Shown in pieces: positions 7,446 through 21,564 of a stretch of 27,173 bases of DNA (within the stretch, counting starts at the first letter, position 1; the number at the start of each line of letters is the position of its first letter). The notes below the pieces were generated by a model. It had not been told where the DNA came from. It saw only the letters and a program-made list of their open reading frames with translations, and ran no database searches. Source of the stretch: Thermoproteota archaeon (GTDB lineage Archaea > Korarchaeota > Korarchaeia > Korarchaeales > Korarchaeaceae); the NCBI GenBank assembly GCA_015522685.1, contig WALU01000045.1, forward strand, positions 1 through 27,173, read 5' to 3'. The translations under genes were made by a program, and so were the position numbers.

Positions 7446-7591
7446 GATTCATTACCTTTATCTTCGCCAATTCTTAGATATAAGGAGAACGATTGAGGCC
7501 ATCTCCTAAGAAGTACATATGAATTAATCAAACAATAATCATAAAACCTGTTGCTTTTAGCTTAATCCAATTTCCATTACAGGGATAGTAT

Positions 7592-8140
7592 ATGGGTTTA
7601 ACCGATGGAAGGGGAAAGATAATTGAGGAGATAGTTGAGAAAGAGTACAAAATGTTCGAATCCCTGATAGTTAGAGACTTGGATAGATGCAAGGATAATC
7701 CTAGAACATTTAAGCTCGTTAGGTGGGCGTACTTCTCAGTTTTTTCTAATGAAGCACTTCAATCCTACTTGATGGATTTGGAGGAAGCAGAAAAGCATAA
7801 TAGAAACTTGTTAGAAGAGAAATATGCTAGAATAGATGAATTAATCCCTCGGATAAAGGAGAACTCGTTGATAGATAAGATAGTGGCAATAAGATTGGAG
7901 TGGATGAGGGAACTTGCTTCTAAATACCCTTATACTTTCCAGATGGATGATACAAGCTTTACCATATATCTAAGGAGCGAGCTAGAGACTTATTCTGATA
8001 GAACTCTAAAGCTGATTTATAGAGACCTCCAAAAAGCTTTGAAAGAAGGGAAAAATCTACTAAAAGAGCAGTATGAACATCTTTTCAGTAAGGTAGGTTA
8101 CAACTCTCTCGAAGAGGTCGAAAGAAGGAAAGTAGGCTAA
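7592..8140 (+). CDS. DUF4125-like protein of unknown function, internally duplicated
   Basis: SYLxDL...RNLLxEKYAR and YLRSELETYSDRTL...GKNL segments resemble DUF4125 as I recall it; its stop overlaps the convergent activase stop by 4 bp. Confidence 0.7.
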   Translation: MGLTDGRGKIIEEIVEKEYKMFESLIVRDLDRCKDNPRTFKLVRWAYFSVFSNEALQSYLMDLEEAEKHNRNLLEEKYARIDELIPRIKENSLIDKIVAIRLEWMRELASKYPYTFQMDDTSFTIYLRSELETYSDRTLKLIYRDLQKALKEGKNLLKEQYEHLFSKVGYNSLEEVERRKVG

Positions 8141-9036
8141 CCACCTACCCTAACCAGTAAATCATACTCCTCTAGCAGACCAACAACCTTGTTTATGAGT
8201 TGCTGGCTTGGCTGTTCGAATTTTTTCTGCGTTTTATCTAATCTCTCTGCCTTACTCACCCCTAATGGGTGGTATGGAAGCACATTTAACTGCTCTACGT
8301 TTCTGAATGTGGAAACAAACTCGCCCATAGCCCTAATGCTAGCTTCATCATCATTTACTCCCGGAATTAGAGGGAACCTTACCCATATTCTAGCCCCAAG
8401 ATCATCTAATAGCTTTAAATTGCTTAATATGAGATCATTCCTGACTTCCGTATACAACAGATGCTTTTTAGGATCCATTATCTTCAAATCATAGAGAAAA
8501 AGATCAGTAAATCTGCATACTTCTTTCATAACCTCCTTGCTGGCATATCCAGATGTATCAACTGCAGTATGTATTCCCTTGCACTTGAGCTCCTCAAGGA
8601 ACCTTACGACGAACTCATGCTGCATTAGAGGTTCTCCACCTGAAACAGTAACACCTCCTCCCGATTCATCGTAGAAAGGTCTATCCTTTTCTATCTCTTC
8701 AAGAAGTTCCTGAATTGTGTACCACTTCCCAGCCATCTCCCTAGCTCCAGTTGGGCAGTGCTCCACGCATATACCGCAATTATCGCATAGCTGCCTATTT
8801 GTAACCACCTTTTCATTGACTATACTTACCGCTTTCTGAGGGCAAACTTCCACGCATGTGCCGCAGATAATGCATCTACTCTCATAATACATCATCTCTG
8901 GATAGAATTCTTGTCCTTCTGGATTGTGGCACCACCAGCATCTGAGAGGACACCCCTTAAAGAAGATAGAAGTCCTTATACCAGGTCCGTCATGAATCGC
9001 ATATCTCTTTATGTCAAATATCAAGGCCTTTAGCAT
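8137..9036 (-). CDS. Glycyl radical enzyme activating enzyme (radical SAM, with 2x[4Fe-4S] ferredoxin insert)
   Basis: HDGPGIRT, GCPLRCWWCHNPE, CIICGTCVEVCP, CDNCGICVEHCP, GGVTVSGGEP; GGTGA RBS at 9041-9045. Confidence 0.95.
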   Translation of the reverse strand: MLKALIFDIKRYAIHDGPGIRTSIFFKGCPLRCWWCHNPEGQEFYPEMMYYESRCIICGTCVEVCPQKAVSIVNEKVVTNRQLCDNCGICVEHCPTGAREMAGKWYTIQELLEEIEKDRPFYDESGGGVTVSGGEPLMQHEFVVRFLEELKCKGIHTAVDTSGYASKEVMKEVCRFTDLFLYDLKIMDPKKHLLYTEVRNDLILSNLKLLDDLGARIWVRFPLIPGVNDDEASIRAMGEFVSTFRNVEQLNVLPYHPLGVSKAERLDKTQKKFEQPSQQLINKVVGLLEEYDLLVRVGG

Positions 9037-9055
9037 TTAATCACCAATTTAGCAC

Positions 9056-9079
9056 AAAAGAAGAAAAAGAAAGGAGAAA
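9056..9079 (-). terminator. U-rich terminator-like tract between GRE and activase
   Basis: Minus strand TTTCTCCTTTCTTTTTCTTCTTTT directly after the GRE stop. Confidence 0.45.
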
Positions 9080-9081
9080 TG

Positions 9082-11466
9082 CTAAATAGATTCATGCTCC
9101 ATTCTAGATATTATCTCATCTTGTAGGTCCTTGCCTATAGCGACGAAGAAATCGCTATACCCTGCTACCCTCACTAGAAGGTTTCTATATTTCTCAGGCT
9201 CTTCCTGAGCCTCTCTCAAGGTATCAGCGCTCACGACGTTGAACTGTATATGATGCCCACCCAGCTTGAAGAATGCCCTTATGAGATGAGCTAGCTTCCT
9301 TACATCCTCTTCAGTTTTAAGGGTTTGTGGAGAGAACTTCATGTTAAGGAGAGTCCCTCCTGTCTTTACATGATCCCACTTAGCTACGGATTTTATTACA
9401 GCGGTTGGCCCCTTCCTATCTGCTCCCTGAACTGGGGAAACTCCCTCAGAAACTGGCTCGCTAGCCTTTCTACCATCTGGCGTAGCCCCTACTACCTTCC
9501 CAAAGTATATGTGTACGGTAGTTGGGAGCAAATTAGCTCTATAGACGCCTCCTCTAGTGTTAGGTTTCCCATCTAAGAGTTTGACATAGATATCAACGAG
9601 CTTTATAGCTATCTCATCAGCATAATCATCATCGTTGCCATACTTAGGCGTCTTATTCCAGAGAATCTGTCTCAGTAATTCATATTCTCCTTCGAAATTG
9701 CTAGATAATGCCTTTAATAAGGTGTTCATGTTAAACGTCCTCCTATCAAATATGTGATACTTGATAGCAACTAGGCTATCGGTTATAGTTCCTAACCCAG
9801 TTCCTTGAATATAGCTTGTATTATACCTCGGACCTCCATTGTTGTAATCCTTACCCTTCTCTATGCAATCATCTATCAGTAGAGAGAGAAATGGCTGAGG
9901 AATATACTTAGCATACAATCTTTCTATGATATTATTTCCTATTATCTTGAGATTAATGAAATATTTGAGCTGCTTCTTATACACCTCAAAAAGCTCCTCG
10001 AAAGACTTGAACTCTCTAGGATCTCCAGTCTCTATTCCTACCTTCATTCTTGTTCTTGGATCAAAGCCGTTGTTTAAGGTAATCTCTAGGATCTTCGTCC
10101 AATTCATATAACCAGTGAGACCAACAGTCTCCTTACCAAATGCGCCTATTGTGACGCAACCGCTAGGTCCACCTAGTCTAGCATCTTTCAGGGTTTTACT
10201 CTGCCTCAGATGCTCCATTATTATAACATCTGTATTGAATATGGATGGCTTGGGGTGACCAGTAGCTATTATCCTGAGAGCCTTGAGAAGAAGCCAGTCT
10301 GGGGTTTTCTCACTTATCTGAATGCATAAATTGGGCATCATAATTCTAAGCTCATCTTCAACCTCTAATATAAGATCCGAAAGCTCATTGGCCACTGGTC
10401 TCCCATATTCATCAACTCCACCTAGATTTGGAGTGCTGAAGTCTTGATACGTGTTGCTCTGCTCCTTCGTCACTCCTACCTTCGGAGGAGCCGGTTGGTT
10501 ATGAATCTTTATCCATAAACAGGCTAACAGTTCCTTAGCTTGCTCCCTAGTTAATCTGCCCTCTTCTAGATCCTTCTTATAGAAGGGATACCACCATAGA
10601 TCTATCCTCCCAGGATTGAAGGAGTCCCAAACGTTTGTCTCTGACGTAACCCCTAGGTGAATGAACCAGTACATCTGTAATGCTTCCCAGAAGTTCCTAG
10701 GGGCATGAGCCGGAACCCAGCTGCAGACCTCATCTATCTGCTCTAACTCCTTCTTTCTTTTGGGATCTACCTCCTCATCTGCCATCCTCTTTGCTAGATC
10801 CGCATATCTATTGGCGAAATTTATCATAGCATCTATTGTTATTTCCATTGCTAGGAGTTCTTGATCCTTCTCCCAAGCTTCAGGATCATCTAACCAGTCT
10901 ATTTCTCTTCTTCTCTCTTGAACCTTCCTCTTGAAATCTAGAAGGCCCATTTTGTAGATCTTATCATCCATTATAGCATGACCCATAGCCCTCTGTTCCA
11001 TGAACTCTGTGAATACACCAGCCTTAAATGCTTTCATCCAAGCTTCTGGCATATTCCTGAAGATCATGCTTCTCATATCCTTATTCTTCCAGAAAGGAAT
11101 TATCTTCTCTTCATATATCTTCTTGACCTCATCCTTTACTATATAGGGGTTATCTTTCATGGAGTTGAGATTCTCTAAATCCTCCAAAGAGTGAAGGCAT
11201 TGCTCTGGATATGTGGGAACCGCTCTTGGTCCCCTTCCCTTCTCCCCCACTATGAGTTCACCGTCCTCTATACCTATTGTTTTATTCTCCAGATAATACT
11301 TGAAGGCCATAGCCCTAAGGACTGGAGGAGATAGACCCCTCGCCTGATCGCTTTTATAAAACTGAGTTATAAGAGTAGCACGCTCAGGATCTATATAAGG
11401 AGTTCTTAAGCTTTGCTCACGGAGCTTAGATATCCTCCTATTAAGACCTGTGAGAATAGTTACCAT
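9082..11466 (-). CDS. Glycyl radical enzyme, HypD (4-hydroxyproline dehydratase)-like with a non-canonical GCVT Cys loop
   Basis: RVAGYS (Gly769), SGCVT (Cys437). HypD-type segments EFMEQRAxGH, NQPAPPKVG, FGKExxxLTGY, LPTTxHIYFG, DHxKTGGTLLN. Confidence 0.92.
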   Translation of the reverse strand: MVTILTGLNRRISKLREQSLRTPYIDPERATLITQFYKSDQARGLSPPVLRAMAFKYYLENKTIGIEDGELIVGEKGRGPRAVPTYPEQCLHSLEDLENLNSMKDNPYIVKDEVKKIYEEKIIPFWKNKDMRSMIFRNMPEAWMKAFKAGVFTEFMEQRAMGHAIMDDKIYKMGLLDFKRKVQERRREIDWLDDPEAWEKDQELLAMEITIDAMINFANRYADLAKRMADEEVDPKRKKELEQIDEVCSWVPAHAPRNFWEALQMYWFIHLGVTSETNVWDSFNPGRIDLWWYPFYKKDLEEGRLTREQAKELLACLWIKIHNQPAPPKVGVTKEQSNTYQDFSTPNLGGVDEYGRPVANELSDLILEVEDELRIMMPNLCIQISEKTPDWLLLKALRIIATGHPKPSIFNTDVIIMEHLRQSKTLKDARLGGPSGCVTIGAFGKETVGLTGYMNWTKILEITLNNGFDPRTRMKVGIETGDPREFKSFEELFEVYKKQLKYFINLKIIGNNIIERLYAKYIPQPFLSLLIDDCIEKGKDYNNGGPRYNTSYIQGTGLGTITDSLVAIKYHIFDRRTFNMNTLLKALSSNFEGEYELLRQILWNKTPKYGNDDDYADEIAIKLVDIYVKLLDGKPNTRGGVYRANLLPTTVHIYFGKVVGATPDGRKASEPVSEGVSPVQGADRKGPTAVIKSVAKWDHVKTGGTLLNMKFSPQTLKTEEDVRKLAHLIRAFFKLGGHHIQFNVVSADTLREAQEEPEKYRNLLVRVAGYSDFFVAIGKDLQDEIISRMEHESI

Positions 11467-11591
11467 ACTAAGTCGCCGCGTACTAACCCTAAGGCAACCT
11501 TATTACTTTTATCATGGACCTTCGGCATGTAATATTGTTTATATCAGTAATTATTATTTGCGCAAGAGCCTCATTTTTAAATTGATTTAAA

Positions 11592-11723
11592 ATGGGAAAC
11601 TTCATGACCACTATGAGGCTAGGCATGCCAGAGGGCATTGCAAAACTGTCTATTTTCTTGACATCTGAGGATCCTGAAAATAACAGGCCAGCATATGCAA
11701 CACAAACAGCAGATTATCTGTAA
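11592..11723 (+). pseudogene. C-terminal remnant of a short-chain dehydrogenase/reductase
   Basis: Manual translation MRLGMPEGIAKLSIFLTSED, then after a frameshift ITGQ (11680-11691); matches the SDR tail RxGxPExIAxxxxFLxSxxxxxITGQ. Confidence 0.6.
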
Positions 11724-12083
11724 GCACCTACTGGCTACTTTATGAACTCCTTAAGACTCATACACAAAAGTAGTGGCTCCTATTCAAGAACCAGTGAATG
11801 AAACCATTTGTAAAAAATAAATACATTATAATGCCATTAAAATATGCAATATTGTTGTCATAATGTCTTCATAGTACGAAATTTCTGTCGAAATAATGGA
11901 AAGAGCGATTGCTGCTTTGACCCCCTCATATAAATATCTATTTAATTTAAGATAATGTAACTTAAAAATGCATGATCTTAGTCTAGAAAGTATTACGCTC
12001 ATATATGCCCTATCTCAAATTCATACATATTCAATCAATGTTATCATGCTGACTGATATGAAGAAAGAAAAGATAAATTCTAA

Positions 12084-12101
12084 CCGAAAAGGTTATTATA
12101 T
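12084..12101 (+). promoter_or_regulatory. BRE/TATA promoter of the ABC transporter operon
   Basis: CCGAAAAGG-TTATTATAT about 28 bp upstream of ATG 12129. Confidence 0.6.
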
Positions 12102-12128
12102 CTCCTTAAGACCTAGCTGAGGGTTAAG

Positions 12129-13466
12129 ATGAGACGTAGAGGTTTGTCAATCTCAGCATTAGCTATTTTCTTAATAGTTGTTCTCATCATAGGTATAGGT
12201 ATAGGTTATTTAATTCCTAGAGGTGCGCCAACAGCAGTAGTAACTAAAACAGTCACTACAGGTGCGGGAACTACAGCTACTATAACGAAGACAATTACTG
12301 CTGCAGGTGCAGGAGGTTTACCTTCAGAAATCCCAATAGGCGTCTTAAACGCACTTAGTGGCAGCTTCGGAACATTTGGAACGAGAGGACAGGCAGCCCT
12401 AGAGGTAGCTGAGAAGGATATAAATGATTACGTCAAGAAATTAGGTCTTAATGTAAGATTTAAGTTCTATTACGAGGATTATGCTACGAAGCCTGATGTA
12501 GCCCTTCAGAAAGTCCAATCTCTGGCTGCAAGAGGGATAAAGGTTATAGTAGGCGGTCTCATAAGTGGCGCAGTCAAACAGGTATCTTCCTATGCAAATA
12601 CTAACAAGATAGTGATAATAGCTGGCGCATCGACAGCTCCTAGAGAGTCTGTAGCTCCGCCTGGAGGCTATGTATTCAGGGTACTACCTCCATGTGGGGC
12701 TGAGGGTGAAGCTCTGGTAGCAGTTCTCAAGGATAAAGGGATAAAAAATGTTGCTATGATAACTACAGAGGATACATACAGCCTCTCCATTCGCAAAGCA
12801 TTCGCTTCTGCAGCAAAGGCGGCAGGCATCAACATAGTGCTAGATACCACATTCCCGCCGGAAACAAAGGACTTTACTGCTCACTTAGATGCTCTGGAAC
12901 GCGCTGTAACTCCTTACGTACAAAAAAGTGAGCCTATAGCTGTATTCATGAATGTATGGGAGAATCATATACCTCTTCTATTAGATCAAGCTAATAAGAG
13001 AAAAAGTCCCCTTATGAACTTACTTTGGATAGTTCCTGATACAATTCCACTGAGCACGATAGTTCTAAAGGAATCTGGAAAACTAGCAGAGAAGGTTAAA
13101 CTGATAGGACCTCTATTCACGGCCCCAGCGTCAAGTGCTCATAGGCATGTTAGTGAAGCTGTAAGGGCTAAGTTAGGACAGGAACCTGATGTATATGCCC
13201 TTGCTGGTTACGATGCCGCTTGGATTGCAGCTCTCTCCATACTCATGAGTCGTAGTTATGATGCTGAGGCCATAAAGAACACAATACCCCTTGTTTCAAA
13301 GCTTTACTGGGGAGCTACTGGAAATATAGAACTAGATCAGAATGGAGATAGAAAAGTCATGGATCAGGAGCTATATGCCGTTGTTAACGGCCAATGGAAG
13401 GTAGTCGCTGTATACAAATCTCTTGAGAAGAGCTTAACATGGGTTGTACCGATCAATGTCCCATGA
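12129..13466 (+). CDS. Liv-type amino acid ABC transporter substrate-binding protein, membrane-anchored
   Basis: N-terminal TM helix and Thr-rich linker; IPIGVL..LSG, ED...KP, STAP, YDAAW, GATG.I.LDQNGDR. Confidence 0.9.
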   Translation: MRRRGLSISALAIFLIVVLIIGIGIGYLIPRGAPTAVVTKTVTTGAGTTATITKTITAAGAGGLPSEIPIGVLNALSGSFGTFGTRGQAALEVAEKDINDYVKKLGLNVRFKFYYEDYATKPDVALQKVQSLAARGIKVIVGGLISGAVKQVSSYANTNKIVIIAGASTAPRESVAPPGGYVFRVLPPCGAEGEALVAVLKDKGIKNVAMITTEDTYSLSIRKAFASAAKAAGINIVLDTTFPPETKDFTAHLDALERAVTPYVQKSEPIAVFMNVWENHIPLLLDQANKRKSPLMNLLWIVPDTIPLSTIVLKESGKLAEKVKLIGPLFTAPASSAHRHVSEAVRAKLGQEPDVYALAGYDAAWIAALSILMSRSYDAEAIKNTIPLVSKLYWGATGNIELDQNGDRKVMDQELYAVVNGQWKVVAVYKSLEKSLTWVVPINVP

Positions 13467-13473
13467 GTTATAT

Positions 13474-13499
13474 CCCTTTTCTTTATTTTATTTATTTCT
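13474..13499 (+). terminator. U-rich terminator-like tract after the binding-protein gene
   Basis: CCCTTTTCTTTATTTTATTTATTTCT follows the stop. Confidence 0.45.
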
Positions 13500-13549
13500 A
13501 TATAGAATAGCTATTAGTTACGATTTAGGTCGTTAGCTAGGTGATTCTT

Positions 13550-14332
13550 ATGGATAGCACCATTGATTACAGTCAAGTAATCTTACACACAGATAAACTT
13601 ACGAAGAGGTTTGGTGGTCTTATAGCTGTCAATGAGGTCACTCTTAATGTTAAAAGAGGTTCAATTACGCTATTAATAGGTCCTAATGGATGCGGTAAAA
13701 CTACATTTGTTAATACCATTACTGGATATTATAAACCCGATGGAGGCAGGGTATTCTTCGATGGAGGGGATATTACCGGTTTACCCCTAAATAAAACATA
13801 CGAGAAAGGATTAGTAAGGACTTTTCAAATACCATTTCCCTTTCTTAAGCTGAGCGTTCTGGAGAATCTATTAGTTGCTGCCAGAAACAATCCTGGAGAG
13901 AAATTCACGAGGCATCTTATAAAAAGCTCGTGGATAAAAGTGGAGGAGCAACTCACCGAGAAAGCCTTCAACATCATGAAGATGCTTGGAATTGAGGAGG
14001 ATTGGGATAAAGAGCCAGAATCATTAGACGCTGGGGCATTGAAGCTCATTGAAATAGGGAGGGCTCTAATATCTGATGCGAAGATGATTGCTTTGGATGA
14101 GCCGATAGCGGGAGTCAACCCAAAGCTGGCTCATAATATCTTTTCACATATAGTTAACCTAAGGAAGGAACTAGACATTACTTTTCTTATAATAGAGCAC
14201 AGGCTGGATATAGCCCTGAGGTATGTCGACTTTGTCTATGCAATGTATCGAGGAAAGATAATCTCTCAGGGAACTCCAGAAGAGATAGCAAGGGATAAGG
14301 AGGTGAGAGAGGTTTATGTGGGTGGTGAATAA
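13550..14332 (+). CDS. livG: Liv-type ABC transporter ATPase (LivG-like)
   Basis: KRFGGL, GPNGCGKTT, RTFQ, LDEPIAGVNP, IIEH; ATG 13550 follows AGGTGA. Confidence 0.88.
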   Translation: MDSTIDYSQVILHTDKLTKRFGGLIAVNEVTLNVKRGSITLLIGPNGCGKTTFVNTITGYYKPDGGRVFFDGGDITGLPLNKTYEKGLVRTFQIPFPFLKLSVLENLLVAARNNPGEKFTRHLIKSSWIKVEEQLTEKAFNIMKMLGIEEDWDKEPESLDAGALKLIEIGRALISDAKMIALDEPIAGVNPKLAHNIFSHIVNLRKELDITFLIIEHRLDIALRYVDFVYAMYRGKIISQGTPEEIARDKEVREVYVGGE

Positions 14333-15042
14333 TGCTAAAGGTAAAAAATCTCAACTCAGGTTATGGAAAGCTTCACGTGCTCTATGATGTTTCCTTAGAA
14401 TGTGAAAAAGGAGAGATAATTTCAGTAATTGGTCCTAATGGTGCAGGTAAAACGACTCTACTAAATAGCATATTTGGAATAGCAAATATATACTCAGGTT
14501 CTATCACGATAGACGGAAAGGAAACCACTAGACTTCCTGCCTACGTTATTTCTCGAATGGGGGTGGCATACGTCCTACAAATGCTCAATGTGTTTGCTCA
14601 ATTGACAGTGGAGGAAAACCTGAGGATTTCTGCTGCATATTCCAAGGTAAAAGATATCAATAAAGCTACGGAGAAAATATATGAAATATTTCCAATACTT
14701 AGGGAAAGAAAGAAGCAACTAGTTGGTACCCTCAGTGGAGGAGAGAGGCAGATGCTAGCTATAAGCATAGGGCTCATAAGGAATCCGAAAATACTTCTAC
14801 TGGATGAACCTACTGCTGGCCTAATGCCTCTATATGTTAAAATGATAGCTAACAAGATCAAGGAGATAAGAGATATGAGGGGCATCAGCATAATTCTGGT
14901 GGAACAGAATGTCCAAAAAGCTTTAGAGCTAGCTAATAAAGTCTATGTACTCGTTAGCGGCCAAATAATATTCAAAGGAAGTCCATCTGAGCTCAAAGAG
15001 AAGCATGAGATAATGAAGTTATACCTCGGTGTAGGTGAGTAA
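14332..15042 (+). CDS. livF: Liv-type ABC transporter ATPase (LivF-like)
   Basis: GPNGAGKTT, LSGGERQMLAI, LLDEPTAGL, LVEQN. Confidence 0.9.
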   Translation: MLKVKNLNSGYGKLHVLYDVSLECEKGEIISVIGPNGAGKTTLLNSIFGIANIYSGSITIDGKETTRLPAYVISRMGVAYVLQMLNVFAQLTVEENLRISAAYSKVKDINKATEKIYEIFPILRERKKQLVGTLSGGERQMLAISIGLIRNPKILLLDEPTAGLMPLYVKMIANKIKEIRDMRGISIILVEQNVQKALELANKVYVLVSGQIIFKGSPSELKEKHEIMKLYLGVGE

Positions 15043-15044
15043 CA

Positions 15045-15959
15045 ATGTTTGGAATAGGACTACCCACTATTGTAGGAGGGCTCACATGGTCTGCTCTCCT
15101 ATCCCTCATGGGTATTGGTATAACTCTCCTATATAGAACCACGAAAGTTCCAAACTTCGCCCATGCATCTTTTGTTACGACGGGGGTATATGCTTCCTTT
15201 ACGCTCTCGCTTCTGGGCTTCCATCCGTACTGGGGTATACTCGCTGGATTTATTTTAACTGGATTGGAGGCATTACTACTCTTTTACTCTATTTTAGAGC
15301 CCCTGAGAAGGAGAAAATCATCGGTATTCATACTAATGATCGGTACGCTCGCCTTCGACATTCTATTCTATGGTATACTAAATATCTATGCAGATTATCT
15401 ACAAACAGTTTTTAAAGCATCGGCTAGAGCGGTGTATCTAGCTCCGAAGGATTTCTCTATTATGGGAATCCCAGGAATAATGTTCATGTCTTTAGGAATG
15501 CTAGTAATCTCAGTACTAGGGCTATACTTGCTACTAAATAGAACCACTGTTGGTATAGCTTTAAAGGCATGCATGGAGAACACGGCGCTTGCTCAAACAA
15601 TTGGAGTGAATGTGAGCCTAATGCTCATGCTTTCATGGTTTATAGCTGGAGGGATTGCAGGCATCTCTGGAGCTCTACTACCAATGTACATTGAGACTAG
15701 TCCTGATATAGGTGTGCTTCTAGTGGCTGAAATGTTCTGTGTAAGCATCCTCGGAGGATTGGAGCAAGTCTATGGGGCGCCTCTAGGAGGATTCCTGATG
15801 GGCTTCGCTGAGGTCGTACTTACTTCATGGTTAGCCTCAGAGGTAGGCCCTTGGATAATTTCGTATACCCCATTACTACCCCTTGGAGCAATGGCTCTTA
15901 CGCTAATATTCATTCCAAAGGGATTAGCTACCATAAAAATTAGAAGAAGAGAGGGGTGA
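15045..15959 (+). CDS. livH: Liv-type ABC transporter permease (LivH-like)
   Basis: GITLLYRTTKVPNFAH, ENxxLAxxxGVN, SILGGL; hydrophobic. Confidence 0.88.
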   Translation: MFGIGLPTIVGGLTWSALLSLMGIGITLLYRTTKVPNFAHASFVTTGVYASFTLSLLGFHPYWGILAGFILTGLEALLLFYSILEPLRRRKSSVFILMIGTLAFDILFYGILNIYADYLQTVFKASARAVYLAPKDFSIMGIPGIMFMSLGMLVISVLGLYLLLNRTTVGIALKACMENTALAQTIGVNVSLMLMLSWFIAGGIAGISGALLPMYIETSPDIGVLLVAEMFCVSILGGLEQVYGAPLGGFLMGFAEVVLTSWLASEVGPWIISYTPLLPLGAMALTLIFIPKGLATIKIRRREG

Positions 15960-17011
15960 ATGAGATGTCTGTATGGAGCGACATAATACTATTTACAGTA
16001 GATCTCCTAGCCCTTTTTGGCGTTTATCTGATAATTAACATAAGCCTTAACATACAGAGAGGCTTCGCTGGTATACCTAACTTCGGTTTAATGTTTGCTA
16101 TAGCAGGGGGAGCTTATATAACTGGGGCTGTTGCTACTAGATTAGCTCTGGTCATGTTGGGAATGCATACGAACTTAGATCCCATCTTTGATAACATACC
16201 TGTTCTCTCCAAGGTTGATCCACTCTTGCAATCTCAGTCTCTTACTTCGATAGCGCTGATGATAATCCTATTAATAATAGGTGCAATCTTCGGCGCCATT
16301 TTAGGGCTTATACAGTTAGGCCCAGCAATAAGGCTAAGAGAGGATTACTTAGCTATAACCCTCCTAGCATTTGCAGAGATGATCAACGTTATAGCCGTGG
16401 CATATAAGCCATTCATCGGCGGAATTACTGGTGTGCAAGTACCAGATGTATTTGCTTGGTCAGGAGAGTATAGATTCTATATTGCTACGGCAGCAATATT
16501 GGTTGTTGCGGCGATATCCTACGTATATGCTGAATTTCTAGGTAGATCTCCTCTCGGCAGAACAATGAAGGCTATTAGAGAAAACGAAGTAGCTGCTATG
16601 GCTTTAGGGAAGAATCTAGTTAAATACAGGGCAATCGCCATGGTAATAGGGTCAGCTTTCTGCGGAATGGCTGGCGTGCTCTGGACCCTCTATGGAGATA
16701 CTGTAACCCCCACATATCATAGGTTCTACTGGACATTCCTTCCATGGTTAATGGTTCTTCTTGGAGGCTTAGGAAATAATAAAGGAGCCCTGCTAGGTAC
16801 ACTCGTCTTTACAGTATTAGATAAGCTCATTATTTACTACAAACATTCCTTAGCGGGAATGCTTCCCTTTGATGTAGTCTGGCTTGATCAAGTGTTGCTC
16901 GGCCTGATCACTGCTATAATCCTTATATATAGGCCGCAGGGTCTACTCGAAGAAAAACCCTATGTACCCAAAGAACTAGAAGCCAAATTGAAATCTATTG
17001 AGAAGAAATAG
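15956..17011 (+). CDS. livM: Liv-type ABC transporter permease (LivM-like); start may be ATG 15965
   Basis: SLNxxxGFAGIPNFG, RLREDYLAITLL, AIRENEVAAxALG, LGGLGNNKG, RPQGL. Confidence 0.88.
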   Translation: MNEMSVWSDIILFTVDLLALFGVYLIINISLNIQRGFAGIPNFGLMFAIAGGAYITGAVATRLALVMLGMHTNLDPIFDNIPVLSKVDPLLQSQSLTSIALMIILLIIGAIFGAILGLIQLGPAIRLREDYLAITLLAFAEMINVIAVAYKPFIGGITGVQVPDVFAWSGEYRFYIATAAILVVAAISYVYAEFLGRSPLGRTMKAIRENEVAAMALGKNLVKYRAIAMVIGSAFCGMAGVLWTLYGDTVTPTYHRFYWTFLPWLMVLLGGLGNNKGALLGTLVFTVLDKLIIYYKHSLAGMLPFDVVWLDQVLLGLITAIILIYRPQGLLEEKPYVPKELEAKLKSIEKK

Positions 17012-17142
17012 TTTTACTCGTATATCCTCTCCTTTTATTTTTAATTAAACTAAATGATGGATGATTTTCTTCAATTTCTTTTATCTCAGGTCAATATATT
17101 TATAAGTGATGGCATTAGTTTCTATACTAGAAAAATCAGGAA

Positions 17143-17820
17143 GTGAGTCTTCTAAGGACTGGTAAATCTCCACTGCGTTCGAAACTCATGTAACTGGTGG
17201 ACCTCTCAGGATAATATCAAGTGAGCTTCCTGAAATACCTGGCAAAACTATACTGGAGAAAAGATTCTATTTCATGAAGAATCTGGGCTATATTAGGAGA
17301 TCCCTCATGTAGGAGCCAAGAGGGCATGCCATATACGGTGCTGTAACAACAGAGTTAGTATCACTAAAAACTATTGATGTGATATAGCTCCATAATAAAG
17401 TTATACCGTTTTGAATATACGGTAATGTCTCTTGGAGGAAAGTATCCTTGGTATTAACTATAATTATTAGCACAAAGCAGTTATTTTGAGATCAAATAGA
17501 TATGCCTTCAGGCCTCGTAAGAGTGCTCGTGGAAATAAAAGAAGAGAATATTAGAAGGATTTTTCCATAACGTTCTTTCCTTTTGTCTATCTAATCTAAT
17601 GGATGAAGTTATTGAGATACCTAAAATCGAAAGAAGTTAGGTATGATATCACATATGGAAGCAATTCCTCTATTTTCATTAACTCAGGGGATGTTAGACT
17701 GAAATACACTCATAATTACTAAGGGAGTCTCATAGATAGAGATATAAATAAAGAGAGCCATCCTGAAGAGCGTAAATATGAGACGCTTCCTTCGAAGAAA
17801 ATCTAAGTTTCTTTTATATT
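17143..17820 (+). pseudogene. Proline racemase / hydroxyproline epimerase / 3-hydroxyproline dehydratase family pseudogene (not in ORF track)
   Basis: Manual translation in shifting frames: THVTGGPLRII...PEIPGKTILEKRFYF...IRRSLM*EPRGHAIYGAV...VI*LHN; IDMPSGLVRV...HNVLSF; EVRYDITYG; IKRAI...FEENLSFL. Stops at 17310 and 17385, several frameshifts, MCGH motif and C-terminus lost. Confidence 0.85.
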
Positions 17821-17843
17821 AAGTAAAAAATAAATGAGAAATG

Positions 17844-19721
17844 CTACCCTCCTTTCCTCAAAATTTCAGTTATTTCCCTAACTCTGAAGCCCTCCAAATT
17901 TAGGCTCTTAGCTGCATCATTTAGCATCGCGTAACAAAATGGACAAGCAACCACCAGCTCTTTAGCTCCAGAGTCAAGGGCTTCCCTAACTCTTTCTTTT
18001 GCCATAGTGCTCTCTCCTATTTGATACCAATAATTGGCTCCGCCTCCACCGCAACAGAATGTATCTTTCCCATGCCTTGGCATCTCCCTAAATCCATCTA
18101 CATGCCTCAAGATCTCTCTCGGCTCCTCTATTATTCCATTAAATCTGGCTAGATTACAGGGGTCATGGAATGTAATCTCGCCTTTCTTCTCAGCCTCTAA
18201 CTTTCCTTCCTTTACTAAACTAGAGAGCAGTTCTACATGAGATATTACTTTGACGCTCCAATCCCTCACTATCCTAGGATACTCATGCTTAAAGACGGTT
18301 AAGCCGTGAGGGCATATCACAAGGAGCTTCTTTACTCCTAATTCCTTAAACAGCTCTGCATTTGCTAGAGCATACTCTTGAAACATGCCTTCCTCTCCCA
18401 ATCTCCTAGCTGGTTCTCCGCAGCAGGTTTCCATCTCTCCAAAAGCTGCAATCTTAATCCCAGTGCTTCTCAGTAAATCAACTAGCTTTGTTACGATCTT
18501 CCTACCTACGGGATCAAAGGAATACTGGCAGCCTACCCAAATATAATAATCTGGATCTTCATCGCTCTTAAGCCAGCTTAACCTTCCCCTCTGGGGGACT
18601 GAGAGGGCATTATGATATCTTCTTAATCCATTAAGAAGCTCCCTCATTTTCTTATCTATCCTTCCCTCAGATACTAAGGAGCGTCTCCTTTCCATCAAGT
18701 ATGAGAATGGACTTATGTAATTTGGGCATGCAGATACACATGCACCGCAAGAGACGCAGGACCAGACGGTCTCATCACCTAGCTCGTATTCTCTCTCTAA
18801 AATTGCCTGCTTCAGTCCTGATACAACATCCTTAGGAGAGAGGGGCTTGCCAGTTGCATAAGCTGGGCATGCCTCTGTACAGCGGCCGCACTTCACACAT
18901 GCAGCCAAGGCGTACTTCTCATACCAAGGTATATCTTTAGCTTCTTGGAAACCCAGCTTTACCTCCTCGAGATTCTCTAACTCTTCCAGTAGGAATGGCT
19001 CTCTTGGGAATTTGACAAGGTCGCTCCCTAGAGAAGAGGTGATTATTGCTATTAGAGAATGGAGAAGATTGCTATAGGGTAGATAAGCTACCATGGAGAA
19101 TGCCGTTAGAGCATGGCTCCACCAGATCCACGGATAAAATGGGAGCATGTAAGGCCCAACCATGCCAGATATCAGGTATCCTATGAAAGAGTAAGGACTA
19201 GCAGCATTTGGATGGGCGTAAATTCTCATGGATTCAAGAAGGAAGCCGGTAATTCCTATATATAGGAGGCCTAACAGTAAAGCTTTTCCTTCATTATCTC
19301 TCGTGGAGAAGAAGGCTAATATCCCTATGAGGAGAATAAGGCCAAATAGATCCATTATTAATTCGAATGCTGAGTAAGTTCCATCGAAAAGCAGCCTTAT
19401 ACCAAAATGAGCCAAAATATCAGTTTCTAGAAAAACTGTTAAGGTTCCCAGGAGGAGAACGAAGATCCCAATAAATAAGAGAAGATGGGGTATGCCTCTC
19501 GGTTGCTCAACAACTCTCTTTTGGCTGAACACCCTGATGAGGCCTCTTTTTACCTTCCCCACATTAAGTTGCAATAAAGCCTTATCAAGTTCAAATTTCT
19601 CAGTAATTCTCCATAGGCCATAGCAGAAAATCAGGGTAAATGGAATCAGTATGAGATACATAGCTAACTGGGTCCATCCCGGAAGTAAAGGAAAGCTTTC
19701 CCTAATTAGCAAGAGAGCCAC
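17844..19721 (-). CDS. Membrane-bound Fe-S oxidoreductase, HdrF/FadF/EMO-like (cytochrome b-like TM domain + 2x[4Fe-4S] + two CCG domains)
   Basis: Hydrophobic N-terminus with His in TM segments; CVKCGRCTEACP, CVSCGACVSACP, ETCCGEP, HDPCNL, FCCGGGG, CPFC. Confidence 0.88.
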   Translation of the reverse strand: MALLLIRESFPLLPGWTQLAMYLILIPFTLIFCYGLWRITEKFELDKALLQLNVGKVKRGLIRVFSQKRVVEQPRGIPHLLLFIGIFVLLLGTLTVFLETDILAHFGIRLLFDGTYSAFELIMDLFGLILLIGILAFFSTRDNEGKALLLGLLYIGITGFLLESMRIYAHPNAASPYSFIGYLISGMVGPYMLPFYPWIWWSHALTAFSMVAYLPYSNLLHSLIAIITSSLGSDLVKFPREPFLLEELENLEEVKLGFQEAKDIPWYEKYALAACVKCGRCTEACPAYATGKPLSPKDVVSGLKQAILEREYELGDETVWSCVSCGACVSACPNYISPFSYLMERRRSLVSEGRIDKKMRELLNGLRRYHNALSVPQRGRLSWLKSDEDPDYYIWVGCQYSFDPVGRKIVTKLVDLLRSTGIKIAAFGEMETCCGEPARRLGEEGMFQEYALANAELFKELGVKKLLVICPHGLTVFKHEYPRIVRDWSVKVISHVELLSSLVKEGKLEAEKKGEITFHDPCNLARFNGIIEEPREILRHVDGFREMPRHGKDTFCCGGGGANYWYQIGESTMAKERVREALDSGAKELVVACPFCYAMLNDAAKSLNLEGFRVREITEILRKGG

Positions 19722-19773
19722 CTGCTTAGGACACTAGAATGCATTTTTTATTTTTTCATAATCACGATAAGCG
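19722..19773. promoter_or_regulatory. Compact 52-bp divergent promoter region
   Basis: Central TTTTTTATTTTTT tract about 20-30 bp from both start codons. Confidence 0.45.
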
Positions 19774-21054
19774 GTGAAGCACTTGGAAGCGGATGTGCTA
19801 GTTGTAGGAGCTGGTATACTAGGTTTAGCTACCGCATACAACATCCTAAGGATTAACCCGAAGACTAGCGTCCTTATAGTTGATAAAACGGGAGATGTTG
19901 GTCAGGGTGCAACAGCAAAAAGCGCTGCTGGCTTTAGGGCGGAGTTATTCACCTCCCCCACTAATCAAATGCTTTCAAACACCTCAGTAAACTTTTATCT
20001 TCATGCTCAGAAGGAGGAGGGTTACGACTTAGGTATAGAACTGGTTGGCTATCTCATCTTGAGAAGCAGGGATCAATTTGAAGAGATAGCCGATATCGCT
20101 AACCTCCTTGAGAAGAAAGGAGCCTTAAAGATCTATAGAAAAGAGGAGTTGAAGAATCTACTGAAGATGAACTATGAATTTGATGGCGACGAAGAGGCAG
20201 AGTTACTGGGGGTCAAGAATATAGATTATGGCTTATTTGGGATAAAATGTGGTTATATAGATGCTGATAAGCTTGCTTACTATTATAGAGATAAGATAAA
20301 AGAGATGGAAGGAAACTTCCAGTTTAACACGAAGGTTGAGAAGATAATAGTTGAACCCGAGGTAAAGCTGGGCATCCCTAGGGAGCCGAGAGCATGGCAA
20401 AAGGTAAGATTTACTGGAATTGAGACAAATAAAGGTTTCATTAAAGCAAAAAATTTGGTTATAGCTGCAGGAGGATGGACGAATCAGCTTTTAGATTCAA
20501 TAGGAATTGATTGTATATCTAAGCCTAAGAAAAGGCAAATTTTCACCTTTAGACCCAAGACCGAGGAGCAGAAGGCTCTACTGAATACAAAGGGTTTTAG
20601 CGAGGAAGGCATACTGCCCTTCACATTCCTCCCAACAGGCCACTATATAAGGGCCGATAAAAGGGATGGAACATTCTGGTTCAGCTATTCCGATGAGATG
20701 AGGCCTTTCTCAACAGATGACAAACCTGAAGAGAAGTATTATTACGATAACATATATCCGATAATAGTAAAGTACTTCCCACAGCTAGAAGGCGCCAGAA
20801 TTGATAACATGTGGGCTGGCCTCTACATGATTAACTCTGTAGATCACAATCCAGTGGTATTCAAGAGATCTAATATGGTTGTGGCGACTGGTGCGAGTGG
20901 AAGTGGTATACTAAAAGGAGATGCTATAGGAAGAATAGCTGCAGCTTTAGTTTACAATGAACCATATGCAAACCTATTTGAAGGTGAGGAAATATCCTCC
21001 AGCAAGCTAGAAGTTATCGGAAGATCCCTTGAGGTTGAGAAGTTTGTCTTCTGA
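19774..21054 (+). CDS. FAD-dependent oxidoreductase (DAO family), most like Aeropyrum/Pyrobaculum single-subunit dye-linked L-proline dehydrogenase
   Basis: GAGILG Rossmann motif; EEAELLGV, DADKLAYYY, LGIPREPRAWQ, KPKKRQIF, GSGILKGDAIGRIAAA and C-terminal ExFVF match my recollection of A. pernix ProDH. Confidence 0.8.
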   Translation: MKHLEADVLVVGAGILGLATAYNILRINPKTSVLIVDKTGDVGQGATAKSAAGFRAELFTSPTNQMLSNTSVNFYLHAQKEEGYDLGIELVGYLILRSRDQFEEIADIANLLEKKGALKIYRKEELKNLLKMNYEFDGDEEAELLGVKNIDYGLFGIKCGYIDADKLAYYYRDKIKEMEGNFQFNTKVEKIIVEPEVKLGIPREPRAWQKVRFTGIETNKGFIKAKNLVIAAGGWTNQLLDSIGIDCISKPKKRQIFTFRPKTEEQKALLNTKGFSEEGILPFTFLPTGHYIRADKRDGTFWFSYSDEMRPFSTDDKPEEKYYYDNIYPIIVKYFPQLEGARIDNMWAGLYMINSVDHNPVVFKRSNMVVATGASGSGILKGDAIGRIAAALVYNEPYANLFEGEEISSSKLEVIGRSLEVEKFVF

Positions 21055-21564
21055 TAGACTTGCTGAGATAGACTTACTGAAATTGTTTCTCCTCATCCTT
21101 TTTACATAAGAGAAATATAATATGGATGCTACAAATTTAACAGCCGAAATCTTGAGTGGATGTCTAATACTAGAGTATATAAAATGAAAAGAAGCAAGCA
21201 TCATAATAAAGAAGGTGATTGTGGAGAGAAGATAGCTCAGGATCTCGCTAGGCATATGCCATGAGTCAAATCCCCTAAAGCTAGTAAGTACGCGAATTTC
21301 TTAATGGAAACAGTAAAAGAACCTATGAACGGATAACTCCTTTCTTGCACTATATTTTAAAACAGAATAATGCCGCAGGACACTTCTTTCATTTCCGTTA
21401 GCCCAGCTCGGTATATGAGCGAAATCTCTATTCAGAGAGATAAAGCTTAGCGGTTGATGTATTTATACCGTGCCTCGCATACCAATTAGCTGTAACGAGT
21501 ATGTAAGACTCGTCTATCCCACCAATAAGAATATATAGCACTACCTCTTTCAATACCGATATGC

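Follow-up and report, generated by a model that had tools for sequence, protein, structure and literature searches.

A 27,173-nucleotide stretch of DNA from a Thermoproteota archaeon (GTDB family Korarchaeaceae; contig WALU01000045.1 of assembly GCA_015522685.1; this whole stretch is called the window below) encodes a glycyl radical enzyme (GRE) of the HypD family in which the glutamate of the Cys-loop CXE motif is replaced by threonine, raising the question of whether a protein lacking this residue can still act as a dehydratase of trans-4-hydroxy-L-proline. Judging from sequence comparisons, we consider it probable that it can: the gene would encode a functional glycyl radical dehydratase for this substrate, from an old sister clade whose hydroxyl-side hydrogen-bond network would have been rebuilt without the Cys-loop Glu. 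Because the CXE motif is absent, the protein is not a HypD in the strict sense; we class it as a variant without the Glu, whose mode of action is most likely that of HypD.

A HypD-family enzyme without the Cys-loop glutamate

An uninterrupted open reading frame (ORF) spans 9082-11466 of the minus strand, and its 794-aa product matches the Pfam PFL-like and Gly_radical families. Residues 7-790 align with residues 24-806 of PDB 6vxc chain A, the HypD of Clostridioides difficile (HMMER, E 1.2e-295), and the wider Cys loop, GGPSGC437-V-T439-IGAF, lies without a gap against the HypD loop, SGCVETGCFGKE. Residue numbers in the window GRE equal HypD numbers plus 3. The elements of the gene and its activase are as follows.

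8137-9036, minus strand: radical SAM activating enzyme, 299 aa, ORF intact, 45 bp downstream of the GRE
9082-11466, minus strand: glycyl radical enzyme, 794 aa, HypD family, Glu-less (Cys-Val-Thr, CVT) clade; assigned from the ORF, profiles and the PDB 6vxc match
9160-9162, minus strand: Gly769, the radical glycine in RVAGY, placed by the motif in the alignment
10144-10164, minus strand: Cys loop, codons 435-441, S-G-C437-V-T439-I-G, gapless against the HypD loop SGCVETG
10150-10152, minus strand: T439, codon ACA (plus-strand letters TGT)
10156-10158, minus strand: C437, the catalytic Cys codon in the Cys loop
10456-10461, minus strand: Q336-S337; the Ser binds the carboxylate, and at 336 the clade has Gln where canonical HypD has Glu
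10975-10980, minus strand: H163-A164; the His is the partner of the absent Glu, and at 164 the clade has Ala where canonical HypD has Thr

Translation and codon reading agree with the first-pass annotation of this DNA on both the loop SGC437-V-T439 and the ACA codon, and the residues that it listed as retained (F155, H163, W280, D281, S337, D342, F343, Y453, LPTT and G769) are indeed kept relative to 6vxc. The radical glycine and the catalytic cysteine are present, as are, by alignment, the residues other than Glu436 that bind hydroxyproline or serve as acid and base in HypD (H163, D281, D342, S337, F343, Y453 and T648-650). The CXE motif of GRE 1,2-eliminases is missing, the loop reading CVT with Thr439 at the position of HypD Glu436. 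The protein nevertheless passes the NCBIfam HypD equivalog model NF043068 (1138.7 bits, cut-off 1100), as do all CVT proteins tested, ten others scoring 1199-1294 bits.

Both the GRE and activase ORFs are intact, as had been stated earlier. The activase, which carries the radical SAM CX3CX2C motif (CPLRCWWC) and ferredoxin-like clusters, scores 350.5 bits against the GRE-activase model TIGR02494 (cut-off 174) and 383.9 bits against the HypD-activase model NF043069, under the cut-off of 425. Fold family, radical Gly and Cys, adjacent activase, and the carboxylate-, amine- and ring-binding residues of HypD are thus all in place.

The sole DNA run listed for the region (X1, labelled hydrothermal vent metagenome) yields contigs with three single-base differences and zero indels across 7500-21100, none of them at 10150-10152; X1 is possibly the source sample, so its agreement at this codon is not independent. 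No RNA run is listed for the region. An AlphaFold2 model built from a 22-row CVT alignment (mean predicted local distance difference test score, pLDDT, 73.6) was rejected for pocket geometry because all active-site loops (155-166, 280-285, 332-344, 433-451, 648-693 and 747-794) fell below a pLDDT of 50.

Thr439 is a conserved character of one clade

Among the 120 best homologues from a search of 5.8 billion clustered proteins, the Cys loop reads GCVT in 90 and GCVE in 30, so Thr439 is neither chance nor a sequencing error; the first-pass annotation had already judged a single-base error unlikely. Nor is it decay. Theionarchaea, Bathyarchaeota, Synergistota, Aminicenantes and Acidobacteriota are among the named sources of these homologues; further groups represented at genome loci are Thor-, Hermod- and Prometheoarchaeota, Pirellulales, Phycisphaerae and Planctomycetaceae. 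Thr439 is invariant in the 103 CVT rows of the clade, although its codon varies (ACA in 9, ACC in 8, ACG in 7 and ACT in 1 of 25 CVT loci, thus all four ACN codons), while the Glu codon of 134 CVE (Cys-Val-Glu) loci is GAG in 72 and GAA in 62. The radical-glycine motif RVAGY is found in 100/103 CVT and 96/96 CVE rows.

The clade is under strong purifying selection. The window GRE has an orthologue of 90% identity in a congeneric genome (L107), and for this pair the ratio of nonsynonymous to synonymous substitution rates (dN/dS) is 0.033; dS is saturated for more distant pairs. Relaxed selection and closest homologues that all carry GCVE, the two findings that together would have spoken against the first-pass reading, were therefore both absent.

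A FastTree phylogeny of 229 rows, computed from an alignment stripped of its Cys-loop columns, unites every one of the 103 ingroup CVT rows and a single CVE row (L031) under one node. A quick IQ-TREE run on 55 rows instead rooted the outgroup within a CVT grade; we rejected this topology on the approximately unbiased (AU) test, in which the tree constrained to hold CVT plus L031 as one clade had a log-likelihood 56 units higher (p-AU 0.937). We therefore accept the CVT clade, a possibility raised in the first-pass annotation, and regard it as the sister of the canonical CVE clade. The C. difficile HypD sequence is absent from the trees, in which Clostridiaceae and Desulfosporosinus sequences fall in the CVE clade; the window GRE lies outside the clade of these sequences, in its sister clade. 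A search of representatives at 50% identity, in which the HypD and CVT clades merge into one representative (P0122), supplied outgroups only.

Three distinct Planctomycetota sequences (L199, L200 and L031, the last identical to L202) have Glu439 together with the clade's Ala164, Gln336, Ser441 and Cys448. They form a subclade (support 99) whose sister group consists of nine planctomycete CVT rows, and both lie within the signature clade (support 100). This pattern calls either for two losses of Glu after the background had changed or for a single regain of Glu; on both accounts Glu and Thr interchange on the same background, which argues that a carboxylate at 439 is dispensable there.

The Glu-less HypD-type clade seems undescribed so far: literature searches on hydroxyproline-type GREs and the CXE motif, archaea included, turned up neither a CXT enzyme of the HypD type nor an assay of any clade member, supplementary alignments lying outside their scope. 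As far as they are described in those papers, Figure 3-supplement 4 of Backman 2020 (PMC7077986) and the 86-sequence tree of Huang 2018 place an archaeal HypD clade near thermophilic bacteria, and this clade may already contain CVT sequences. Two unclassified PFL2-type GREs that are ~38% identical to the window GRE (P0151 and P0155) are also Glu-less, with CVT and CAS, and score below every NCBIfam equivalog cut-off.

Changes lie beside hydroxyl-side residues in sequence

Six signature columns differ between the CVT and CVE groups at ≥90% in both.

Position 147: F in CVT, Y in CVE
Position 164: A in CVT, T in CVE
Position 202: Q in CVT, E in CVE
Position 336: Q in CVT, E in CVE
Position 439: T in CVT, E in CVE
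Position 441: S (mostly) in CVT, G in CVE

Position 448 is in addition Tyr in most CVE rows and Cys, Thr or Val in CVT rows; the window GRE itself has Gly441 and Val448. Positions 164 and 336 adjoin His163 and Ser337 in sequence, and 441 and 448 lie in or just past the Cys loop. The 13 catalytic and substrate-contact positions of HypD (in HypD numbering F152, H160, W277, D278, S334, D339, F340, C434, Y450, P-T-T645 and G765, with roles as given in Backman 2020, PMC7077986) are identical in 101/103 CVT and 92/96 CVE rows.

Four further segments had been singled out as changed, and all four do differ from 6vxc; only the EAYV segment, through position 448, separates the groups, and the other three are not clade features, marking a sub-lineage or varying in both groups. 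GRLDQ is kept in 51/103 CVT rows, the IQPSS segment is variable in both groups, and GHPKP occurs in only 28/103 CVT rows, GFGQP being found at this segment in 66/103 CVT and 75/96 CVE rows.

The first-pass annotation placed the CXE Glu in contact with the ring amine and concluded that the amine side of the pocket had been remodelled. The HypD structure as described in Backman 2020 (PMC7077986) contradicts the first point: Glu436 hydrogen-bonds to the C4 hydroxyl leaving group (2.7 Å) and to His160 (2.5 Å), and is not the proposed acid or base. That role is assigned to Asp278, which contacts both amine and hydroxyl and is proposed to be base as well as acid, and Asp339 reaches the amine via a water; the same account gives E436Q, H160Q, D278N and D339N as all inactive. 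Given that Glu binds the 4-hydroxyl in HypD and that D281 and D342 are invariant in the clade, the second point is reversed: remodelling appears to lie on the hydroxyl side, the changes at 439, 164, 336, 441 and 448 standing beside hydroxyl-side residues in sequence, with the amine-side residues unchanged. That CXE is general in GRE eliminases, also claimed earlier, agrees with published reviews, which ascribe CXE to all the C-O eliminases and isomerases characterised so far; in the 2026 review (PMC13450708) these are six C-O eliminases and, besides them, the isomerases.

Among characterised enzymes, C. difficile HypD (PDB 6VXC/6VXE; NF043068) is similar from end to end (~60% identity, read off the alignment) and shares the radical Gly, the catalytic Cys, the carboxylate, amine and ring contacts, a radical SAM activase encoded next door and the same types of operon partner. 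The clade differs from it in having Thr for Glu436, Ala for Thr161, Gln for Glu333, Phe for Tyr144 and no Tyr at 445, and in that most members have Ser for Gly438, where the window keeps Gly. The N-methyl-cis-4-hydroxyproline dehydratases HpyG and HpzG (PDB 8ID1 and 8IOF), described as glycyl radical C-O eliminases acting on hydroxyproline derivatives, are much further away, scoring 459 and 433 bits where HypD reaches 986, and are both reported to keep CXE. HplG (PDB 7vua) is likewise a GRE acting on a hydroxyproline isomer, scores 391 bits to the window GRE, and is described as keeping CXE and as catalysing ring opening rather than dehydration.

Operon partners and copy number

We compared ORFs within 5 kb of the GRE in 26 CVT and 135 CVE loci, leaving out nine of 170 loci that had no recognisable Cys loop (L133, L160, L162, L061, L189, L011, L019, L047 and L052). 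The compared loci are mutually related, and the counts are accordingly descriptive rather than a statistical test.

Activase: 18/26 CVT, 103/135 CVE
M24B Xaa-Pro peptidase: 3/26 CVT, 17/135 CVE
Proline-racemase family: 1/26 CVT (plus the window pseudogene), 5/135 CVE
OCD/mu-crystallin family: 1/26 CVT, 7/135 CVE
GntR: 3/26 CVT, 3/135 CVE
M2/M3-like peptidase: 7/26 CVT, 2/135 CVE
SSF symporter: 4/26 CVT, 1/135 CVE

Core operon partners are common to CVT and canonical CVE loci. With AE for the activating enzyme and ProR for the proline-racemase family, the order is GntR-AE-GRE-M24B-ProR-OCD in the CVT locus L002 of Aminicenantes and ProR-OCD-x-M24B-AE-GRE in the CVE locus L158. The excess of M2/M3-like peptidases and SSF symporters beside CVT genes comes from one planctomycete lineage and is not independent.

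Among 30 genomes with a HypD-family gene (14 CVT, 13 canonical CVE and 3 with Glu on the CVT background), none has a second copy above the family cut-off, an absence that is suggestive only, many of these genomes being incomplete. One HypD-family gene each is found in the window's genome, in ten CVT genomes reached via the loci (one of which also has a different GRE, at 575 bits), in ten further genomes of the window's 43-genome phylum and in nine further Planctomycetota of 301 sampled. Within the window's genus, CVT occurs in three species (G000, G030 and G035) and CVE in six (G024, G025, G027, G038, G041 and G043), at another genomic location.

Two locus types have arrangements of their own. 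In the planctomycete loci L015, L034 and L130, the operon reads AE-GRE-M2/M3-like peptidase-SSF symporter-M24B peptidase, with a GH3 glycosidase and a xylose-isomerase-like TIM-barrel protein bearing a twin-arginine translocation (TAT) signal upstream; this gene set may release the substrate from glycosylated proteins rich in hydroxyproline. In the Asgard loci L005, L010, L013 and L028, the CVT gene lies between archease/RNA-methyltransferase genes and those for ribosomal proteins L3-L4-L23-L2, with no activase adjacent.

Function of the Glu-less clade

If the clade dehydrates hydroxyproline, the reaction could run much as in HypD. The activase would generate the Gly769 radical and Cys437 would abstract a hydrogen from C5; Asp281, the counterpart of the residue proposed as base and acid in HypD, would deprotonate the amine and protonate the leaving 4-hydroxyl, which would be held by His163 and the neutral hydroxyl of Thr439 within a rewired second shell, in place of the His-Glu pair. 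The pyrroline-5-carboxylate (P5C) released would then be used by the genome's own ProC, and by other routes in other organisms. In bacteria of the clade, Xaa-Pro peptidases and transporters whose genes adjoin that of the GRE may provide the substrate.

Several points weigh against this assignment. The E436Q substitution abolishes the activity of C. difficile HypD (Backman 2020, PMC7077986), and every characterised GRE eliminase or isomerase keeps CXE, as far as the review covers them (PMC13450708). The loss of Glu is accompanied by coordinated changes next to H163 and S337 and within the Cys loop, a pattern that a change of specificity would produce as well. The lack of a second copy is weak evidence in metagenome-assembled genomes, and the neighbour counts come from related loci in which informative neighbours are found in a minority, for either type. 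Finally, the window's genome (92% complete) has no gene of the aldehyde dehydrogenase family, so that P5C has no evident fate past ProC.

A shift in specificity would have the clade dehydrate a related proline-type compound with another leaving group or ring face, such as a different stereoisomer of 4-hydroxyproline, or a hydroxyproline with an O-modification or some other substituent. At least six coordinated substitutions relative to canonical HypD, most of them beside H163/S337 or in the Cys loop, would suit such a shift, as would the loss of two carboxylates and several hydroxyls (E439T, E336Q, T164A, Y147F and Y448C/T/V), the reported inactivity of E436Q, the M2/M3-like peptidases and SSF symporters that are commoner beside CVT genes (7 and 4 of 26) than beside CVE genes (2 and 1 of 135), and the GH3 glycosidase upstream in three planctomycete CVT loci. 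We nonetheless regard it as rather unlikely: the carboxylate, amine and ring residues are unchanged, the core partners match those of canonical HypD loci, Glu-bearing members are nested in the clade, and no genome has both types, although co-occurrence would be expected if their functions differed, while the peptidase and symporter excess traces to a single lineage. A substrate shared by Asgard archaea, Bathyarchaeia, Aminicenantes and Planctomycetes would, moreover, most simply be hydroxyproline. The new substrate suggested in the first-pass annotation thus finds the evidence leaning the other way, given the same operon partners, the lack of co-occurrence in a genome and the interchange of Glu and Thr. 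In its boldest form, the idea that the clade is not a HypD at all, being a distinct enzyme with a less acidic hydroxyl-side pocket for another abundant proline-derived substrate or leaving group, is possible if doubtful; it would make this the first glycyl radical eliminase without the CXE Glu acting on a new substrate, and a widespread one among the Asgard archaea, Bathyarchaeia, Aminicenantes and Planctomycetes that live in anoxic sediments.

The missing Cys-loop Glu could also signal other chemistry after hydrogen abstraction, that is, ring opening or isomerisation of hydroxyproline or proline, as by HplG, rather than dehydration to P5C, in a family whose hydroxyproline-acting members, according to the reviews, comprise C-O dehydratases as well as a C-N lyase. 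We find this improbable, as HplG and other isomerases are given in the same reviews as keeping CXE too, HplG is far more distant from the window GRE than HypD (391 bits for 7vua, against 986), and the conserved neighbours include no thiolase or other genes of a downstream route. Very improbable is a catalytically dead or decaying protein with Thr as the mark of lost function. The loss of a residue reported as essential by mutagenesis and the decayed proline-racemase gene nearby in the window would fit such a history, but the low dN/dS (0.033), the retention of Thr in 103/103 clade rows despite the use of all four ACN codons among 25 CVT loci, the intact Gly and Cys motifs and activase, and the spread of the clade over many phyla all speak against it.

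Hydroxyproline dehydration by a Glu-less HypD relative, the reading we prefer, would have consequences beyond this locus. A large natural clade with Thr but all other HypD residues is a ready-made test of the HypD mechanism, in which Asp278 is base and acid and Glu serves for positioning only. If it dehydrates hydroxyproline, Glu is dispensable in the right background, CXE no longer filters for eliminase function, and the NCBIfam equivalog, which passes these proteins, annotates them correctly on grounds that have never been examined. Otherwise the proteins are misnamed in the many sediment archaea and bacteria carrying them, and a new substrate awaits. Either outcome has its natural controls in the three planctomycete sequences of the clade that bear Glu.

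Genomic neighbourhood of the window gene

Other genes around the GRE and its activase are listed below.

7592-8140, plus strand: DUF4125 protein (Pfam PF13526, E 1.9e-49), convergent with the activase, their 3' ends overlapping by 4 bp
12129-17011, plus strand: Liv/HAAT-type amino-acid ATP-binding cassette (ABC) transporter, predicted from families, divergent from the GRE
12129-13466, plus strand: ABC binding protein of this transporter
13541-14332 and 14332-15042, plus strand: its ABC ATPases
15045-15959 and 15956-17011, plus strand: its ABC permeases
17157-17564, plus strand: decayed proline-racemase-family gene, N-terminal part only, ~140 codons with in-frame stops
17844-19721, minus strand: HdrD/TfrB-like iron-sulfur protein of 625 aa, recognised by a 4Fe-4S dicluster domain and two CCG domains
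19774-21054, plus strand: FAD oxidoreductase of the DAO family, 426 aa (Pfam DAO), close to PDB 3axb/3vqr

The DUF4125 gene is single-copy in the window's genome and adjoins the activase only in the genus's three CVT loci (the window, L107 and L108), and was not found beside its CVE loci; the protein has no solved relative and no informative Atlas match. The racemase relic, between the ABC transporter and the iron-sulfur gene, scores 45.9 bits against PF05544 and matches the ProR-family protein of L002 at 33% identity (tblastn, E 8e-22); it contains two TGA and two TAG codons, X1 contigs show no indels in it, and G+C is low in this region (0.35 over 17001-18000).

The DAO-family flavoenzyme matches PDB 3axb (E 1.6e-73), which is deposited as 'putative oxidoreductase' and which we take to be the dye-linked L-proline dehydrogenase of Aeropyrum pernix. 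The divergent pair at 17844-21054 may encode a proline dehydrogenase that works anaerobically and an electron-transfer partner dedicated to it, the HdrD/TfrB-like iron-sulfur protein being a possible electron acceptor for the neighbouring flavoenzyme. The window's genome also has proC and two M24 peptidases. The set of ABC transporter, racemase relic, iron-sulfur protein, DAO-family flavoenzyme and genomic proC fits a proline/hydroxyproline theme; in L108, the orthologous locus, neither the transporter nor the neighbourhood set as a whole is conserved.

Scanning the window for Rfam families and tRNA genes gave no hits. Between a dihydroorotase-like gene and pyrK, 1.17 kb (1478-2644) hold no ORF of ≥70 aa in any frame; pyrD might be expected in this interval, and it is found on contig C21 instead.

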